DNA of 64,000 nt from Escherichia phage W22: the sequence record PV159336. The stretch is one strand, 5' to 3'. Position numbers and translations under genes: made by a program. Below, piece by piece: positions 5,483 to 64,000 of the stretch. Numbering within the stretch: position 1 is the stretch's first letter; each line of letters begins with the position of its first letter. The notes beneath the pieces are model-generated. The model saw nothing but the letters and a program-made list of their open reading frames with translations, had not been told where the DNA came from and ran no database searches.

Positions 5483-8302
5483 ATGTATCCTATTCCTTTA
5501 TTTATGTCAACAACATCAGCTTCAGTAGTAACAGCTACATCTATAACCACTTCCTCTATTGGTATTGCAATAGTTGGTAGTAAAAAGCAACTGACATACA
5601 CAGTTTCACCGGAAGATGGTGCGTTATTTGATATAGCTTTTTCATCTTCAGATAATACCAAAATGGTTATAGATAATAACGGTATGATGGAGTTTGTTGC
5701 TGAAGGCGGTTTTGATGCAATAATGACAGCTAAAAATAATTTAGGTGCTGTCTTAACTGATCAGTCTGGTGGCTATGCTTCAGAATTAAGTGTGTACACT
5801 GAAAGTCTGTCTGCTATGGATGCAGGAACTACTCAACAATTGGTTGCTACAATCAGTCCAGAAGGTGCTAAAGACCTTCCAGACATGGTAATTACGTACA
5901 CCACAACAGATCCAGAAGTAGCTACTGTAAGCCCTACAGGATTAATAACTGCTCTTAAAGATGGCAGTTGCCGTATAGGTTGCACTGCAACTTATCAAGG
6001 AACAGTGGTGGCCTCTGATAGTTCTTATTTAGGTGTTAATGCTGTTCCTGTTATTTCTAATGTAACAGCCGTGGCAAACAGCTATGGAGACATTCGTGTT
6101 GCTTGGGATGTAGCTGATCCGCTAGATGGTGATACTTATACTGTAGAAGTATTAGATTTAAGTAATAACAGTGTCCAGTGGACTACAACAACCACGAATA
6201 CTTACGCCTACTTTGATATCTCTGACTCTATTCCTCTTTATGGGTTTGCTCCAACATACCTTAAAATTAGCGTTAAGAGCACCAAAGCAGCAGCCGTTAT
6301 CTTTAATAACTCAATAGCTACAGATGATTCATTCATTAAAGAAGTTATTGTCTTTGCTGGACAAGATAACGTAAATGCACACTTTACAGAACTATCTGGT
6401 GCAAATAAAGCAGCAATGAGTAGCACAACAGCCCGTAATGCATATGCTACGCAACGTGGTTTAGCAAATGCTGAAGTTCTCCCGTTAAATACAGCTTCTG
6501 GATCATCAGCAGCAGATAAATATGCAGATGATAAAGCCGGAACAGGTACACCAGACAACTACTGGTATGATCTGGATAACACAGCAGATGGGCCATGCTT
6601 AACTAACTTTATCACTAAAGTCACACCTTATGCAAGTAAGGTTAAAGCAATTATTTGGGGACAAGGTGAAAATGATGCTGTATCAGCATCTTCGACTGTT
6701 GCAGGAAGATACAGTAACACTACACGTTACCATGATGCTACGATAGCTATCTTTGATAAGATGCGTACAATAGTTCCTGCTTCTCAAGCAAAAATTGTTT
6801 GGCAGATCCTAGGACGTTCTTATCTGTATGGTGTAGAAGTTAATGGTGTGGATTGGCAGAAATACAGAAATGTACAAAGAACCATCTCTACAGCACGTGA
6901 CGATGTTATCATTGGTTCTTGGGTAGATGGTGCTGAACGTTACAGTGGTTATGTTTATGAAGAAGGTATTGATGGTCGTATCCATTATATTTCTTCTGTA
7001 TACCAGACAGCAGCTACAAAACTTGCTAAATCAGCAGCAGACGGTACAGACCTAACATCAACGTCACCTGTTTGGGTTGATATGGCTGTTCCAACTGGAG
7101 CAACAGCTACTTCCCAACCTAATCAAGATACAATCTTAGCATGGGATGCTCAAGGTTATAGTAAACACTACTTCCGTAATATTAACGTCTTAACAGCATC
7201 TGTATTAACTGAACAAACGCTTAATACGAACAGTTATACGTTTACCTATGCAGATCAAGTAGAACAATATGGTTTTGCAGCAGGTACTACGATATTTGAT
7301 GTTGCATATTATGACGAAGCAAATGATGTGTTATCTCCTTTAGTACGTTTTAATGTTAGCGTTACAGCAGGAAAAGTAGAAGATAAACCTGTCGTGATGG
7401 ACTATGATTTGACGCAAGAAACTCTCCCATCAGATGTTAAGGTTAATGGTGGAAACTCTTTTGCTCGTGCTTCTGGAGATACACTTGTAGCCACTAACAC
7501 CTTGGTTGCTCCGTTGGAGTATGTTGGCACTACCCCTGTAGGTAGACGTGTAACAGCTAACACAGCTACACAAATTTTTGTCAACAACGCCTTAACAAGC
7601 GCAAGCCCGTGGGTAAAGACCAACTTAACTGTTGCAGCTTCATCTGATAAATCTCCGGCTGGAACTACTGCTAATGTATTCAAATTAACTCCGACTACAA
7701 CCTCTGGTAGTCATATCTTAACTGCAACATATACTAACGCGTACAACATATCTGCCGGACGTAACTGGTCTGCCTCTGTTTTCTTGAAAGCGAACGGGAT
7801 TACTAAGGCCAAACTAAGATTAAAAGCAGGGACTGAAGTTAATGAAGGTACTTTTGATTTAGCAGCAGGTACATTCACAGGAAGTGAAGCTAATATTATA
7901 TCTATGGGCAACGGTTGGTATCGTGCTATTCTGCATAAAACAGGGATAGCCAAACAGTCCTCCATAAGTTTTGAAATAATTGCCTTGGATGCTACTGGTG
8001 CGGAGATTTTCGCTGGGGATGGTACTAGTAACCTTGCAGTTTGGTTGCCACAGCTTGAAGGTGCTTCTACAGGAGAAACATCAAAAGCTGGATCGCCTTA
8101 TGTCTGCACATATCCTGGAAATTTAGGAGGAGTATCCTTCACTATACCAAGGAACGGACATACTGGTGTGGATGTTTACTATTCCAACGGAGACGTTGTT
8201 CGTGACGTATTCTCTGGTACGGCATCTACTTGGACAATAAACTACTCCAGCTTGTACGATTGGGGATCAGTCTTTATTACAGGTTTGAAATATTACGACT
8301 AA
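5483..8302 (+). CDS. tail fibre protein with Ig-like (BIG2-type) repeats and SGNH/sialate-O-acetylesterase-like domain
   Basis: 939 aa; N-terminal Ig-like repeats; internal IIWGQGENDA resembles the W-x-QGESN esterase motif; AAGGAG RBS. Confidence 0.5.
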   Translation: MYPIPLFMSTTSASVVTATSITTSSIGIAIVGSKKQLTYTVSPEDGALFDIAFSSSDNTKMVIDNNGMMEFVAEGGFDAIMTAKNNLGAVLTDQSGGYASELSVYTESLSAMDAGTTQQLVATISPEGAKDLPDMVITYTTTDPEVATVSPTGLITALKDGSCRIGCTATYQGTVVASDSSYLGVNAVPVISNVTAVANSYGDIRVAWDVADPLDGDTYTVEVLDLSNNSVQWTTTTTNTYAYFDISDSIPLYGFAPTYLKISVKSTKAAAVIFNNSIATDDSFIKEVIVFAGQDNVNAHFTELSGANKAAMSSTTARNAYATQRGLANAEVLPLNTASGSSAADKYADDKAGTGTPDNYWYDLDNTADGPCLTNFITKVTPYASKVKAIIWGQGENDAVSASSTVAGRYSNTTRYHDATIAIFDKMRTIVPASQAKIVWQILGRSYLYGVEVNGVDWQKYRNVQRTISTARDDVIIGSWVDGAERYSGYVYEEGIDGRIHYISSVYQTAATKLAKSAADGTDLTSTSPVWVDMAVPTGATATSQPNQDTILAWDAQGYSKHYFRNINVLTASVLTEQTLNTNSYTFTYADQVEQYGFAAGTTIFDVAYYDEANDVLSPLVRFNVSVTAGKVEDKPVVMDYDLTQETLPSDVKVNGGNSFARASGDTLVATNTLVAPLEYVGTTPVGRRVTANTATQIFVNNALTSASPWVKTNLTVAASSDKSPAGTTANVFKLTPTTTSGSHILTATYTNAYNISAGRNWSASVFLKANGITKAKLRLKAGTEVNEGTFDLAAGTFTGSEANIISMGNGWYRAILHKTGIAKQSSISFEIIALDATGAEIFAGDGTSNLAVWLPQLEGASTGETSKAGSPYVCTYPGNLGGVSFTIPRNGHTGVDVYYSNGDVVRDVFSGTASTWTINYSSLYDWGSVFITGLKYYD

Positions 8303-50387: not shown

Positions 50388-51365
50388 ATGGTAGCACCAA
50401 AATCATGGGAACAATATAAAGAAGAGTGTCAACCAATAGCAGAGAGTAAGCAAATCCAAATCTTAGGATGGACGGGACAATGGAAAGGGGGCCACACAAA
50501 ACTTGATTTGTTGTGCCATTGTGGTTATAAATGGGATACTACAAGTATTAACAGTTTTAAATGTGGTAGCGGTTGTCCACAATGTAAGAGGGAGAAACAA
50601 ACAATGTCCGACGATCAACATATTGCAGGTTTCTTTTCTACAGGGAAATTTAAGGAAGGCACTATCTTCACTAACACAGGAACACGGGGTAAAGGATGTA
50701 GGCATATTACCTGGATGGTTGAATGTCCTGTTTGCTCTCATGATGAATATGTTCAAGCAGGTGTTTGTGATGGTAAATTTTACTCTAAAGGACATCGCCT
50801 TAAACAAGGGTATATTCCGTGTCGTTGTGGGAACTATCAGTATACAGAAGACCAGATCACCTATAGGGTAAAAAAGGAAGTAGAAGGGAAAGGGTATGTC
50901 TGGGTAGATTGGATTACCAAACCCTCTTCTATAGGTAAGTTTAAATATCTTTGTCTTGTGCATGGTGAGCAGATAGGGAGTGCTCGTAATTTATTAAGCC
51001 TCGGTCAAGGTTGTCCACAGTGTGCTGGTCATAATCAACAGCAATTATATATTAATATTGTTAAAGATAATGATATTATAGTTGCTCTTAAGTTTGGTAT
51101 ATCTAAAGATAGTGATAGACGATTAAACGGTCAAAATAGCCGTAATCTGTTTTTTATGGAGCGTATTTGTTTATATGATTTTAGCACAGTGAAACAATGT
51201 AAGGCTGCTGAAAGAGCTATAAAGAAAAAATTAAAAACTGGTATTTTAACGGAAAGAGAGTTGAAAGACGGTTATACAGAAACAGTAAGTGTTTCTGATT
51301 TGGAAAATCTTCAAAAAATTATTACACAATATGGTGGCAAATTAGTATACAGTAAGGAGATGTAA
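50388..51365 (+). CDS. zinc-ribbon-rich protein with C-terminal T5orf172 (GIY-YIG-like) domain
   Basis: AAAGGAG RBS; repeated CxxC modules (CGSGCPQC, CPVCSH, CRCGNYQY, GCPQCAGH); C-terminal LKFGISKDSDRRLNGQNSRN. Confidence 0.4.
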   Translation: MVAPKSWEQYKEECQPIAESKQIQILGWTGQWKGGHTKLDLLCHCGYKWDTTSINSFKCGSGCPQCKREKQTMSDDQHIAGFFSTGKFKEGTIFTNTGTRGKGCRHITWMVECPVCSHDEYVQAGVCDGKFYSKGHRLKQGYIPCRCGNYQYTEDQITYRVKKEVEGKGYVWVDWITKPSSIGKFKYLCLVHGEQIGSARNLLSLGQGCPQCAGHNQQQLYINIVKDNDIIVALKFGISKDSDRRLNGQNSRNLFFMERICLYDFSTVKQCKAAERAIKKKLKTGILTERELKDGYTETVSVSDLENLQKIITQYGGKLVYSKEM

Positions 51366-51917
51366 ATGCGGATTACTGATAAGTATGTGTTCTTCTTCTC
51401 GGCAAAAGATGAATTTAGCAACTGGTATCTATCATCTTTTATTGAACCTTTAGCTCCCAAGTATAATAATTCTATTACAAGTTCTGTTGAATTTACTTGT
51501 GTGGAACAATATATGATGTGGAGAAAAGCATGTTTGTTTTATGATTACAGTATTGCATCTTCTATTTTAACCGGAGATCTAAGATATACAGGAGAAAAAG
51601 AACAAGCATATTATAAACGACTAGGCAGACTAGTTAAAGATTATGATGAAGATACCTGGACTTCTTTACGGGAGAAGATTGTCAAACGTGGTTTGTATCT
51701 TAAATACACACAAAATGAAGATCTCAAAAATAAACTTATAGCCTACGCAGATAAGGAGTTCGTAGAGGCAAGCCCTTATGATTCTATTTATGGTATCAAA
51801 ATGGGGATGTGGGATCGTGATGTGGAAAATAAGGACTGTTGGAAAGGACAAAATCTTTTAGGAAAATGGCATACAGACCTTGCTGTTTATCTAAAAGCAC
51901 AATCTGATATTTCCTGA
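51366..51917 (+). CDS. NADAR-domain protein (YbiA-like N-glycosidase / ADP-ribosyl-processing family)
   Basis: AGGAGA RBS; VFFFSAKDEFSNWY, CVEQYMMWRKACLF, EFVEASPYDSIYGIKMG, GQNLLGKW blocks. Confidence 0.7.
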   Translation: MRITDKYVFFFSAKDEFSNWYLSSFIEPLAPKYNNSITSSVEFTCVEQYMMWRKACLFYDYSIASSILTGDLRYTGEKEQAYYKRLGRLVKDYDEDTWTSLREKIVKRGLYLKYTQNEDLKNKLIAYADKEFVEASPYDSIYGIKMGMWDRDVENKDCWKGQNLLGKWHTDLAVYLKAQSDIS

Positions 51918-52132
51918 TATTTTGAAAATTTTTATTTTTATAAAAAGGGGTGTGGGTTTCATGTACAGAAATTCACCCTCTGCACAGTATATCCAGAGTA
52001 AATATTATTCTGTACTCTGTTAATAAAGTATTTAATTTGTTTGTTGGATTATGGTATCTGATCTTTAAAAGGCATACTATCTCTTAACTACTACTTATAA
52101 CAGAACAGTAAAATCATTTTTATAAAAAGGAC

Positions 52133-52340
52133 AAAATTATTTAAAGTTTTTACAGATTTTTGGGTACAAATTTTGAAAATGAAAAGTTCAAGTTTGGTCA
52201 AAATTATTTAAAGTTTTTGTACGTATTTCTATCCAGATTTTGAAAATGAAAACTTCAATTTTTTAAAAATTCCCCAGTTTATTTAAAGTTTTTTTGCCTT
52301 TTTCCGTAGAAAAATCAAAAATGAAAAGTTCAATTTCGTG
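52133..52340. repeat. three tandem AT-rich direct repeats (about 67-77 bp units)
   Basis: Each unit has ATTTAAAGTTTTT (52139, 52206, 52281) and TGAAAATGAAAA(G/C)TTCAA (52174, 52241, 52316). Confidence 0.7.
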
Positions 52341-52359
52341 TTTTTATGGGTATGCGTAT

Positions 52360-52470
52360 GATAATCATTCTCATTTGTAAATGAGAATCATTATCATTTA
52401 ATTATGTAAATGATAAGCATTCTCACTAAGAGAATGAGAATCATTAGCAAATGAGAATTTTTCTCATTTA
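52360..52470. promoter_or_regulatory. palindromic operator-like array built on TGAGAAT/ATTCTCA
   Basis: Three inverted repeats: 52360-52395 (17-bp arms), 52418-52436, 52449-52469; at least 7 copies of the 7-mer in 110 bp. Confidence 0.6.
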
Positions 52471-52730
52471 CAGAATAACGCGCAGGGGCGGTGTTTGTCT
52501 CGCGCTCCCGTGTCCCCTCGCCATACAATAAGAATAGCATAACCAACAACAAAAGCAAGCGATTATTTTTATCTTTACATTTCTTTACAAATTTATTTTG
52601 GACGAGCTACCGGCGATCAACCTTCCAACCAGTGCCCCCTGGTATGTTAGCCCCGCCTTTACGCCGTGGGGGTGGCGTTTCCTCTTCTGTATGTAAAACA
52701 GTATAAGCCCGATCCCTGGGCTTGTCAAGA

Positions 52731-52997
52731 TTATTTTTTGTTTTCTTGCCAGGATAGGACACCTAACCAAAAATACATGTCGCCCCGCGCCCCTGGCGGG
52801 ATCTTGCTTTCCCCGCCGCCACTGCAAGCCCATAAATAACCATCAGCGAACGGATCAAAGTGATCTATCTCTTCCACCTTATGATCGCCCAGGTTGAGAA
52901 CGGTTTCAACCTTTAAGCCCGTTGCGCTTGCTACCTGGTGCACCGTGCCGCCTTGCCAGCCCAATGAGTGCATGAGATGTAAAGGAGTATTTGTCAT
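52731..52997 (-). CDS. hypothetical protein encoded in GC-rich island
   Basis: 88 aa ORF with AAGGG RBS; local GC content far above surrounding phage DNA. Confidence 0.3.
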   Translation of the reverse strand: MTNTPLHLMHSLGWQGGTVHQVASATGLKVETVLNLGDHKVEEIDHFDPFADGYLWACSGGGESKIPPGARGDMYFWLGVLSWQENKK

Positions 52998-53108
52998 GGT
53001 ATCGCCCTTTCTTTGATGTGCGCCCTGGTTGGCGCGGTAGAAAGATAATAGCCGTTTCCTTTATAGATAGCAAGCAAAAAAGAAATGAAAAAAAGATTAA
53101 AAAAATGG

Positions 53109-53170
53109 TTGACGTTCCTCACCTGGTAGCGTAGTATTCATCTTGTCGAGGGGCGGCAATAGTGCCGCTC
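53109..53170 (+). promoter_or_regulatory. sigma70-like promoter plus 5'-UTR hairpin cassette
   Basis: TTGACG 53109-14, 17 nt, TAGTAT 53132-37; hairpin GCGGCA-ATAG-TGCCGC 53153-68. Confidence 0.6.
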
Positions 53171-53192
53171 ATAACAGAAGAGAGAAATAATC

Positions 53193-53465
53193 ATGGCATC
53201 ATATAGCGCATCAATGATCGTAAAGGGTATCACTGGTAAACCTATGCGCGGTGGCGGATCTTTCGCTAACATCAATATTGATGGACGTTTATCCCTGGAC
53301 GCAGCGATCACAGTGGCACGGGAAACGTTTAAAAAAGAATGTAATTTCAATAAACAAGATTATCTCGGTTTCGCTATTGAAAAAACCGCGCGATTTGTGG
53401 ATTATAAAAGCCCGAAAATGATCGACACTACACTAAAAGCGCAAGATGTAGCGTTTTTGCTTTAA
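53193..53465 (+). CDS. hypothetical early protein
   Basis: 90 aa ORF downstream of promoter-hairpin cassette. Confidence 0.5.
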   Translation: MASYSASMIVKGITGKPMRGGGSFANINIDGRLSLDAAITVARETFKKECNFNKQDYLGFAIEKTARFVDYKSPKMIDTTLKAQDVAFLL

Positions 53466-53468
53466 GTC

Positions 53469-53528
53469 TTGACACTGAAAAATAATTTGGTAATATATAC
53501 TCCATAAGGCGGGAAATGGTTTCCCGCC
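53469..53528 (+). promoter_or_regulatory. sigma70-like promoter plus 5'-UTR hairpin cassette
   Basis: TTGACA 53469-74, TAATAT about 53491-96; hairpin GGCGGGAAA-TGG-TTTCCCGCC 53508-28. Confidence 0.65.
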
Positions 53529-53550
53529 AAAACAAAGAAAGGGTAACACA

Positions 53551-53913
53551 ATGAGCAAGCAAATCAATACTATCATGTTAAACCTGGTATCTTTCCGCGA
53601 TGACGTGAAAAACCTTTCGCGTGATGCAGTGGATGCACGGATCGAAAGCTATCGCACACAGATCGCAACGTTACCGCTGAAACGTGATCAACATGCCGCT
53701 AATATGATGCTTGATGCTATGATTAAAAAGATGATTCAATGTGATCTTACCCTGGCTTATGAATATGCTGGCGATCTCTTTGTAACATATAGCAAGCCCG
53801 TTCCAGGTATGAGCACCACGGAAGAATTGCATGCCTTAAATCTGCGACAAGATGCATGGGATAACATGCGCCGTGTTATGGTATGGGTAGAAAGCGGTAA
53901 AATTTACGAATAA
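53551..53913 (+). CDS. hypothetical early protein
   Basis: 120 aa ORF after cassette. Confidence 0.5.
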   Translation: MSKQINTIMLNLVSFRDDVKNLSRDAVDARIESYRTQIATLPLKRDQHAANMMLDAMIKKMIQCDLTLAYEYAGDLFVTYSKPVPGMSTTEELHALNLRQDAWDNMRRVMVWVESGKIYE

Positions 53914-62834: not shown

Positions 62835-62848
62835 ATAACATTCCATAC

Positions 62849-62876
62849 AAGGGCGCAATAAGCGCCCTTTCTTTTT
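62849..62876 (+). terminator. rho-independent terminator
   Basis: GGGCGC-AATAA-GCGCCC then TTTCTTTTT; same hairpin as 57288-57304. Confidence 0.7.
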
Positions 62877-63169
62877 ACCTCAATAAAGATGATAGCTTTT
62901 ACCTATCAAAAACGTTCACCGAAAAAAGTGAATAGATCGCGGTATCGAGCTAATCAAGGAGCAGATGAATAACCATACCATGAAGATCATAAGGCGCTTA
63001 CAACGTGTTTTAGACCGCTTATTTTTAATTTCTCCATGTAACTATCTGGCAAAAACAGCCTTTTTCTTATCTTTCCTCTTAAATAATAATCATTCTCATT
63101 TATAGCTGATTATTTATGCAATAAACTGAATAATGCAATAATGATAATCATTCTTAACTTAAGACCATC

Positions 63170-63480
63170 TAACCTATAAAATAATAAGTTATCTAACTAA
63201 ATTAAAACTAATTATCTTACTTTTATTTATAACTTACTGTTACTATCTCATTGATAACCTTATATTAAACAACAATAACTAATATAAATCATTACTAAGC
63301 TAAATATAATCTATCTAACCTTTAAAACTATAACTATAATCTATTTAATTATTGCACAAAGTAACTATTAAATCGTTAGTAACATTACTAAATAATTAAT
63401 ATCCTATCTATTTATGATCTAATCTTTACCTTACTATCTATTACCTAAATAATCATTTCATACCGTAATCATTTCATACA
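63170..63480. repeat. G-depleted, extremely AT-rich low-complexity tract
   Basis: About 10 G in 300 nt on + strand; built from CTAA/TTAT/ATCT-type words; no ORF. Confidence 0.7.
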
Positions 63481-63523
63481 ATAATTATAACAAGAAATAT
63501 AATTCGCAAGCGTATCATTAGCA

Positions 63524-63692
63524 GCCTATGCCGGACACATAGGCGGCTAATAATAACGCAACTACACACCTCACATAATAACTATCACCGATAGTTATTA
63601 TCTGTGCTTATGTAGCTTGCAACAATTGCAAGCGCAACAATATACACGGTATATTGTATTCCCTTACATTGTTGCGGTGCGTTATTATTAGC
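63524..63692. repeat. cluster of nested inverted repeats (cruciform/structured-RNA candidate)
   Basis: GCTAATAATAACGC 63546-59 pairs with 63679-92; inner IRs at 63524-44, 63576-63600 (11-bp arms), 63615-33, 63633-76. Confidence 0.65.
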
Positions 63693-63900
63693 TAATGTTT
63701 AGAACATTGGCTATAATATAAGCTATCCAATAATAAACATAGTGAATAATGACCCTGATGATCATAATGCGCCACCTTCCAGGGGGCGCTATGTGAACAC
63801 AAAGAAATCTTTCTTGTCAAGAAAAATATTACCATTATTGCGCAAAATTATTTACATCTGAATAGATGGTTTTTCATACTATTGGCCCAATGTAACTTGT

Positions 63901-64000
63901 CATTTGTTGAGCATAGTTATAGCCTATTTGTTGCAATGTATCTTCCTATTTGTTGCCCTAACTATTGCTATTTGTTGGGTACAACTATTCCTATTTGTTG
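63901..64000. repeat. iteron-like array: five copies of C(T/A)ATTTGTTG at 22-23 bp spacing, running off window edge
   Basis: Copies at 63901, 63924, 63946, 63968, 63991. Confidence 0.7.

Follow-up and report, generated by a model that had tools for sequence, protein, structure and literature searches.

Fur-operator-like palindromes form an array in a conserved non-coding hub of Escherichia phage W22 and related phages

Introduction

Fur boxes, the operator sequences recognized by the ferric uptake regulator Fur, are well-known components of the iron regulons of bacteria and are also found in some cargo operons of prophages. In E. coli, the operators of fhuA, fecI, fecA, entC/fepB, fepA-fes and cirA are built on a 19-bp palindrome that occurs in adjacent or overlapping copies. 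Phage DNA can carry such host operators as well, for example upstream of the sitABCD operon on lambdoid coliphages (PMC6969025). Here we analyse a stretch of 64,000 nucleotides, referred to as the window, from Escherichia phage W22 (PV159336), in which a region that we call the hub contains an array of palindromes matching the same 19-bp operator. The array resembles the E. coli operators in its adjacent and overlapping copies and, in several related genera, in a box lying between -35-like and -10-like hexamers; it differs from them in belonging to a non-coding hub of a virulent phage, in having no iron gene nearby and in comprising up to five copies 17-29 bp apart. In the sitABCD case, the operators serve an iron/manganese transporter of a temperate phage, whereas the virulent phage described here has no such cargo and carries its boxes in cis-acting regions near the genome end. 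We found no report in the searchable literature of conserved Fur-box arrays in non-coding control regions of virulent phages, and no description of this hub, of an rV5-group origin or of a non-coding RNA.

Other described systems share parts of this layout. Iteron origins, such as lambda ori, P1 oriR and plasmid oriV, consist of direct repeats of the same orientation beside AT-rich DNA, while the T7 primary origin and T4 oriF and oriG have tandem promoters firing into an AT-rich region. The rV5-like phages are reported to encode a T7-type DNA polymerase and a gp4-like primase-helicase; the map in the genome paper on rV5 includes a box labelled 'non-coding', and no origin could be defined there (PMC3606486). 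In T5, the boundary of first-step transfer lies at 7.9% of the genome, in an untranslated region rich in repeats and palindromes; the preprint on its injection-stop signal (iss) describes two 66-bp DRE repeats and makes no mention of Fur (10.1101/866236).

Results

The palindromes match host Fur operators

A sequence-only reading of the window had drawn attention to the palindrome GATAATCATTCTCATTT-GT-AAATGAGAATCATTATC, which is present at 52360-52395 exactly as quoted, with 17-nt arms; when extended, the arms measure 19 nt and are 95% complementary. The motif AATGAGAATCATT, with at most two mismatches, has 16 matches in the window as compared with 4.4 expected, a number reached by none of 100 shuffles; the segment 52357-52468 accounts for eight of these matches, and another four make up a second cluster at 63082-63152. 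The phage core, TGAGAAT-C-ATTCTCA, differs from the 7-1-7 Fur core TGATAATnATTATCA at a single symmetric position. The Fur consensus GATAATGATAATCATTATC, with up to three mismatches allowed, is matched four times in the window against 0.05 expected, twice in the array and once in the second cluster.

A symmetric weight matrix was built solely from 28 phage palindromes, all those present in the 18 non-redundant homologous hubs being confined to 11 of them, and scanned over four 50-kb pieces (200 kb) of E. coli K-12. Nine of the 11 matches above 10 bits were classical Fur operators, namely those of fecI, fhuA, entC, cirA, fepB (two), fecA, fepD-entS and fepA-fes. Every window box that reaches 19 bits falls within one of two non-coding regions: five form the array at 52357-52468 and two more are found at 63082 and 63140 (Table 1). 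The 10 kb of small genes between these regions contains no box at this threshold, and the other 51 kb of the window yields only two weak matches (12.2 and 15.6 bits). Random sequence of 25% GC gives 0.0035 sites of at least 19 bits per kb, as against five within the 112 bp of the array.

That the TGAGAAT/ATTCTCA palindromes are Fur-operator sequences is well supported by these comparisons, and host Fur very probably binds the array. The same boxes are clustered in the unrelated T5-like phage Gostya9, a finding that speaks for recognition by a host protein and not by one specific to a phage. The untranslated terminal-repeat region of Gostya9 has five such sites (21.8-33.3 bits) at 6874-7588, and in the 30 kb covered only a single further site reaches 19 bits, at 188 inside dmp. 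At 6874-7606 of the Gostya9 record, this injection-stop region also has a run of 23-bp repeats with half-boxes beside DnaA boxes.

A promoter scan near the array returned only TTCTCA-18-TATCAT (9/12), on both strands of the large palindrome. In seven lineages of homologous hubs (L005, L011, L026, L028, L030, L035 and L038), the proximal box is flanked by TTGAAT-18-CAGAAT/CTGAAT, which resembles a plus-strand promoter. At the proximal box of the window, the -10-like CAGAAT occupies 52469-52474 and the -35 reads GCAAAT.

Table 1. Features of the hub and of the subterminal region (positions in the window)
Feature	Position	Strand	Remarks
GATATTT direct repeat, two copies 10 bp apart (Tandem Repeats Finder (TRF) period 10)	51906..51922	+	overlaps the NADAR stop codon
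Direct repeat unit 1, 67 bp	52132..52198	+	ATTTAAAGTTTTT, 24-nt spacer, AAAATGAAAAGTTCAA
Direct repeat unit 2, 75 bp	52199..52273	+	
Direct repeat unit 3, 67 bp	52274..52340	+	
Fur box 1, 27.8 bits	52357..52375		left half of the large palindrome
Fur box 2, 32.1 bits	52380..52398		overlapping 19-mer 52377-52395 matches GATAATGATAATCATTATC at 16/19
Fur box 3, 23.6 bits	52409..52427		
Fur box 4, 19.0 bits	52433..52451		overlapping 19-mer 52430-52448 matches the consensus GATAATGATAATCATTATC at 16/19
Fur box 5 (proximal), 27.3 bits	52450..52468		position kept in enterobacterial-phage hubs
GC-rich segment, short hairpin with conserved loop GGTGTTTGTCTC	52478..52522		non-coding
Candidate promoter P2(-), TTGCTT-16-TATTCT, weak	52531..52558	-	read from alignments
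GTAAAGAAATGTAAA, fits GTAAA-N5-GTAAA (CpxR-box pattern)	52574..52588	-	upstream of P2(-)
Structured RNA domain (candidate), about 90 nt	52600..52693	-	downstream of P1(-); CGCC/GGCG stem, CCNN/NNGG pseudoknot stem, bulged hairpin
Promoter P1(-), TTGACA-17-TATACT, 11/12	52700..52728	-	spacer contains the terminator hairpin of the upstream open reading frame
Small gene, 88 aa, Phi92_gp224 / phrog_19316	52731..52997	-	third-position variation typical of a real gene
Second Fur-box cluster	63082..63158		63082, 28.6 bits; 63140, 19.0 bits; subterminal AT-rich non-coding DNA

A second cluster lies near the genome end

Phage BME3, of the same genus, is reported to have 342-bp direct terminal repeats as determined by PhageTerm (PMC12210895). 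Window position 63955 corresponds to BME3 position 343, so that the left physical end of the genome would be found at the right end of the window; the basis for this terminus is that single published PhageTerm result (PMC12210895). The BME3 terminal repeat holds two more Fur boxes, just past the window. Boxes of at least 19 bits accordingly number two in the terminal repeat, two in the subterminal region and five in the hub, with none in between. The hub array and the subterminal cluster are about 10.5 kb apart, and in diverged Klebsiella-phage relatives, too, a further Fur cluster is found, 9.3-10.4 kb away from the anchor of the hub (CTACCGGCGAT), in a non-coding stretch of more than 1 kb.

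Measured from the first position of the BME3 record, the hub is 11.2-12.4 kb distant, and the physical end is some 70 bp further away. Counted from the BME3 terminus, whichever end enters first, this places it at 7.6-8.5% of the 147-kb genome. In the terminal block of BME3, every coding sequence (CDS) is at most 184 aa long and transcribed towards the end. The one exception is the small open reading frame (ORF) of the hub, which together with P1(-)/P2(-) forms the sole inward-facing transcription unit of the left-terminal 12 kb. The region at 62835-64000 is a long AT-rich non-coding stretch (29% GC in 63001-64000) with many short repeats, and a 23-bp tandem repeat runs past the window end.

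The hub is conserved in modular order across phage genera

The window belongs to a phi92-like Justusliebigvirus. Its segment 51918-52520 (603 bases compared) is 100% identical to Escherichia phage EC.P2 (PQ631072), and BLAST over 51300-53200 gives 97-98% identity to some 55 phi92-like members of Justusliebigvirus, a genus in the subfamily Stephanstirmvirinae. Relatives carry about 255 bp extra within 51300-53200, divided among BLAST pieces. Within the genus, the sequences are 97-99% alike, too close to inform on selection at the level of sites. The public annotation of the region is empty, or is restricted to 'repeat_region' or to tiny hypothetical ORFs.

The sequence-only reading had described some 560 bp devoid of credible ORFs. 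Indeed, 51918-52480 contains no ORF longer than 54 aa, and its short ORFs are not conserved; the non-coding stretch had nonetheless been drawn too short, as the next plus-strand gene begins at 53193 and the small minus-strand ORF is the sole gene between 52480 and that position. A scan for tRNA and tmRNA genes found none. The GC content falls to 18-28% across 52000-52450 (about 450 bp) as compared with 37% for the genome.

It is well supported that the repeats and the palindromes are both modules of a conserved 1.27-kb hub, 51918-53192. Homologous hubs were gathered by two pattern scans of IMG/VR and by distant BLAST, and were found in Phapecoctavirus, in Seunavirus and in Klebsiella, Cronobacter, Erwinia, Pectobacterium, Serratia and Proteus phages, and for the right half only in Aeromonas phages. 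The order of the modules is constant: GATATTT repeats, A/T-tract blocks, the triplet of direct repeats (period near 67 bp), Fur boxes, a GC-rich non-coding element, P1(-) and the small minus-strand gene. Two or three GATATTT copies, spaced by 10-12 bp, start the hub in every genus despite differences in the upstream gene, which encodes a NADAR protein in the window, an HNH endonuclease in SSE121 and a methylase in FBKp34. Most other genera also have two or three copies of TTATCTCAAA, which the window lacks.

Fur boxes, one to five in number, are present in every enterobacterial-phage hub fetched, with only a single hub box in SSE121, L011, L026 and L032; in several genera the boxes follow a 29-bp period. 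The proximal box lies 146-157 bp before the anchor in all hubs but one (198 bp, in L032). For the GC-rich segment, coding potential was rejected because 1-nt indels separate the genera, and comparison with plasmids and E. coli genomes yielded nothing relevant to a ColE1-like primer or a single-strand initiation signal.

Upstream of the hub, the window encodes a CapR-domain/T5orf172 endonuclease (50388-51365) and a NADAR (YbiA-like) protein (51366-51917). The endonuclease is shorter than its counterparts in phi92 or alia.

The three direct repeats

Three direct repeats are present as described by the sequence-only reading, at 52116-52194, 52183-52261 and 52258-52336, their starts being separated by 67 and then 75 bp. 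Over 79 nt, the second and the third copy each share 72% identity with the first, and TRF reports a period of 67 with a score of 178. The motif ATTTAAAGTTTTT occurs exactly at 52139, 52206 and 52281, with no further exact copy in the 64 kb; with one mismatch allowed there are four matches against 0.77 expected. Likewise, AAAATGAAAA(G/C)TTCAA is found exactly at 52176, 52243 and 52318 and nowhere else in the 64 kb, at a constant offset of 37 bp from ATTTAAAGTTTTT in all three units. The third copy reads TCAAAAATGAAAAGTTCAA, in which the leading 'TGAAAATG' that had been quoted is inexact.

Three such units, each of about 67 bp, stand at the matching place in at least seven other lineages: TRF gives a period of 67 in the window, SSE121 (L005), L028 and L030, and three units are seen by eye in L032, L035, L011 and L026. 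The sequence of the unit varies among genera, while copy number and period are retained. In most genera the repeats follow the order GGTTCTCGATCGA, TTTTCAAAATCGAAAACGTATTTT, GAAAAAATTTTT, with which the window has only the core TTTTGAAAATGAAAAG in common. Relatives with the same layout do carry the repeats, so that their absence there, which the sequence-only reading had named among the findings that would refute it, is not observed. The three repeats, with several internal palindromes and unique in the genome, form a separate, conserved module of the hub and most likely provide binding or bending sites for some factor. AA/TT phasing within them gives a modest 11-bp signal (top 0.5% of genome windows), which is not decisive. 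The units were also considered as sigma-70 or T4-type late promoters and rejected, because the hexamers misfit by eye and a match to TTTAAATA is not conserved in other genera.

A minus-strand unit with a candidate structured RNA

A counterpart of P1(-), either a sigma-70 promoter or at least its -10 hexamer, occurs in every lineage aligned, including the Aeromonas phages; its hexamers are conserved, whereas the spacer is variable and hairpin-forming. Counterparts of the candidate P2(-) combine TTGATC/TTGCAA/TTGACC with TATTAT/TATATT/GATACT at a distance of 16-17 nt, over a freely varying spacer. Both promoters are directed into the Fur boxes and the AT-rich repeats. The GTAAA-N5-GTAAA pattern upstream of P2(-) is perfect in the window and conserved in most genera, as a pattern match only; it also occurs in the cpxR-cpxP intergenic region of E. 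coli, and was counted zero times in 200 kb of E. coli and twice in the window. In phi92-like phages, an insertion of about 10 nt, corresponding to about one helical turn, separates this CpxR-like box from the -35 of P2(-).

Downstream of P1(-), two short RNA stems are arranged as a possible pseudoknot. The stem CCCC/GGGG becomes CCAA/UUGG, CCAG/CUGG or CCAU/AUGG depending on the lineage, and the bulged hairpin shows compensatory changes in all five counted pairs; over the domain, such changes are seen in six pairs. In some lineages the hairpin is capped by GAAA or GCAA, loops that are of the GNRA type on the minus strand only. In the alignment, 95.6% of cells are paired as compared with 87.5% in shuffles (none of 500 reaching the observed value) and 22-45% when the partners are slid. 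A search of 51500-53600 against Rfam, on both strands, returned only chance microRNA matches on the palindromes (E 0.26 and 0.58). RNAalifold on the whole 230-nt element was weak on both strands (-10.4 and -11.9 kcal/mol), and only the domain of about 90 nt beside P1(-) holds up. No other part of the hub is conserved as widely as this domain, which in Aeromonas phages stands alone between the promoter and a bidirectional terminator. With its promoter, 52600-52728 on the minus strand is a candidate conserved non-coding RNA that ranges from phi92-like to Aeromonas phages.

The 88-aa protein gives a confident five-helix model (predicted local distance difference test, pLDDT, 94), and no structural or sequence relative of known function was found for it.

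Discussion

The best overall explanation of these observations appears to be a Fur-box array set in a conserved non-coding hub, with Fur gating transcription across the hub, an account to which we would give an even chance. From the identity to Fur operators, the conservation, the geometry of the modules and the covariation of the RNA, we infer the binding of Fur, the promoter that it would control and the function of the hub. In an iron-replete cell, Fur-Fe2+ would occupy the five-box array, which sits between the AT-rich three-repeat block and a conserved non-coding transcription unit made up of P1(-) and P2(-), firing towards the array, and the putative structured RNA. The plus-strand promoter-like TTGAAT-18-CAGAAT of other genera, which faces the RNA unit, has its spacer occupied by the proximal box. 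Given the position of the array between these modules and the geometry of the promoters, occupancy by Fur would gate hub transcription in one or both directions, a step that, taken by itself, may equally well hold or fail, and hub activity would thereby become responsive to iron.

Several observations weigh against this explanation. AT-rich palindromes can resemble Fur boxes. The poor -35 at the proximal box of the window implies that the plus-strand promoter is weak or absent here, and the boxes lie at about +56 to +74 relative to P2(-), which is unusual for a repressor. The RNA unit occurs without any Fur box in L037/L046, L029, L034 and the Aeromonas phages. Moreover, the metagenomic relatives L037/L046 have a different palindrome, TTAGTCAC-G-GTGAGTAA, at the Fur-box spot, which looks like an operator swap at a fixed position. 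L037/L046 retain the RNA unit and the conserved CTGAATGACG.

For the hub as a whole, the function that we favour, though only by a narrow margin and as less likely than not, is that of a transcription-activated replication origin of the T7/T4 kind. In keeping with the T7 primary origin and with T4 oriF and oriG, conserved promoters are directed into an AT-rich region; unlike those origins, the promoters here are of the host sigma-70 type, and repeats and Fur boxes make up the AT-rich part as a structured array of 450 bp. The likeness to iteron origins is limited to direct repeats of the same orientation beside AT-rich DNA, since the units, at 67-75 bp and with internal palindromes, are far beyond the 17-22 bp of classical iterons. 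Furthermore, no DnaA or IHF consensus sites were found in 51900-53200 (a scan of the hub for the CRP consensus was also negative), and no recognizable initiator or Rep-like gene is adjacent, the neighbours being the NADAR protein, the CapR/T5orf172 endonuclease and the 88-aa protein. The turn of the GC skew is at about 47 kb and not at the hub, and the skew, which tracks the orientation of the genes, was rejected as an indicator of the origin. Of the 'iteron plus operator' organization put forward by the sequence-only reading, the anatomy of repeats and operators in a conserved cis-acting hub stands, but the operators match those of host Fur and the repeat units are not of iteron length. Alternatively, the hub may be a regulatory RNA locus, in which a minus-strand non-coding RNA made from P1(-)/P2(-) would be opposed by a Fur-repressed antisense transcript and act in trans on phage or host targets, the repeats being upstream or downstream control elements of the RNA unit. 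This would fit the wide conservation of the RNA domain and its persistence with only promoter and terminator in Aeromonas phages, the covariation and GNRA loops that favour a minus-strand RNA, the plus-strand hexamers that face the RNA unit around a Fur box, and the operator exchanged at the same position in L037/L046. It is nevertheless rather unlikely, somewhat more so than the origin, since no target, no clear minus-strand terminator in the window and no Rfam match were found, and since it leaves unexplained the three conserved 67-bp repeats, the GATATTT repeats and the second Fur cluster 10 kb away.

A parallel with T5 suggests a further reading, in which the hub is the inner boundary of a first-entering segment and bound host proteins (the abundant Fur, perhaps CpxR) pause or gate DNA transfer, or the switch from the terminal block of small genes, in the manner of the T5 injection stop. 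The position of the hub brackets that of the T5 boundary (7.9%; 10.1101/866236), and both regions are large, untranslated and rich in repeats and palindromes, with 65-67-bp direct repeats (two such repeats lie at 1589-1718 of locus L007 from Gostya9) and Fur-box arrays. In both cases small genes lie between terminus and region and are directed towards the terminus, all of them in BME3 and the nearest ones (dmp to gp006) in Gostya9; Fur clusters bracket the terminal block in the genus and in its Klebsiella-phage relatives. However, two-step transfer has never been reported for rV5/phi92-like myoviruses, the two regions share no homology beyond the Fur boxes, and the agreement near 8% could be a coincidence; the terminus comes from one published PhageTerm result. 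T5 also has paired DnaA boxes and a 10-kb terminal repeat, whereas this phage has no DnaA boxes in the hub, a 342-bp repeat and no gene of the size of A1 in its terminal block. It is unlikely, in our estimate, that rV5/phi92-like myoviruses and T5-like siphoviruses independently placed Fur arrays and 65-67-bp repeats about 8% from the end as a checkpoint of entry or of the early phase, at which transfer or expression of the remaining genome would depend on iron and envelope state; the checkpoint function itself is to be rated hardly higher for this hub. The multiplicity of boxes could also be read as a sponge, by which the replicating genome titrates Fur and derepresses host iron uptake to the benefit of the phage. 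Titration of Fur by multicopy boxes is the principle of the Fur titration assay, and genomes of the genus have at least nine strong boxes (five in the hub, two subterminal, two per terminal repeat). Yet the genera with one hub box look operator-like, the boxes are fixed relative to other cis elements and derepression that comes late in the lytic cycle leaves little time for an effect, so that we consider a sponge slightly less probable still. Finally, the boxes might be operators for a phage-encoded regulator, such as the neighbouring small minus-strand protein; its conserved gene is 260 bp away, and palindrome arrays are typical of phage repressors. This was also the attribution suggested by the sequence-only reading, and it has to be given up as far as the palindromes match the host Fur operator and recur in unrelated T5-like phages, which makes it the least probable of these readings and a very remote one.

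With respect to significance, the hub is among the most conserved non-coding features of these genomes of about 145 kb, and efforts to map the origin, the programme of early transcription or the entry of DNA now have a defined target in it. If Fur binds, a broad group of therapeutic coliphages and of Klebsiella and Salmonella phages would read the iron status of the host through a cis element; iron being scarce in the gut and in infected tissue, this could affect the performance of phages there. The parallel with T5 also provides a testable candidate host factor for the sixty-year-old question of the T5 injection stop, and Fur would be the long-sought host factor acting at that signal if the hub were indeed an entry checkpoint.

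Two minor observations concern public collections. Several records that carry the name of a Campylobacter, Acinetobacter or Serratia phage share 90-98% identity with these coliphages, and their hosts may therefore be mislabelled or the records contaminated. Lastly, the exact 19-mer AATGA(G/T)AATCATT(A/C)TCATT occurs in at least 120 viral contigs of IMG/VR, so that perfect Fur boxes are widespread in viral sequence collections.

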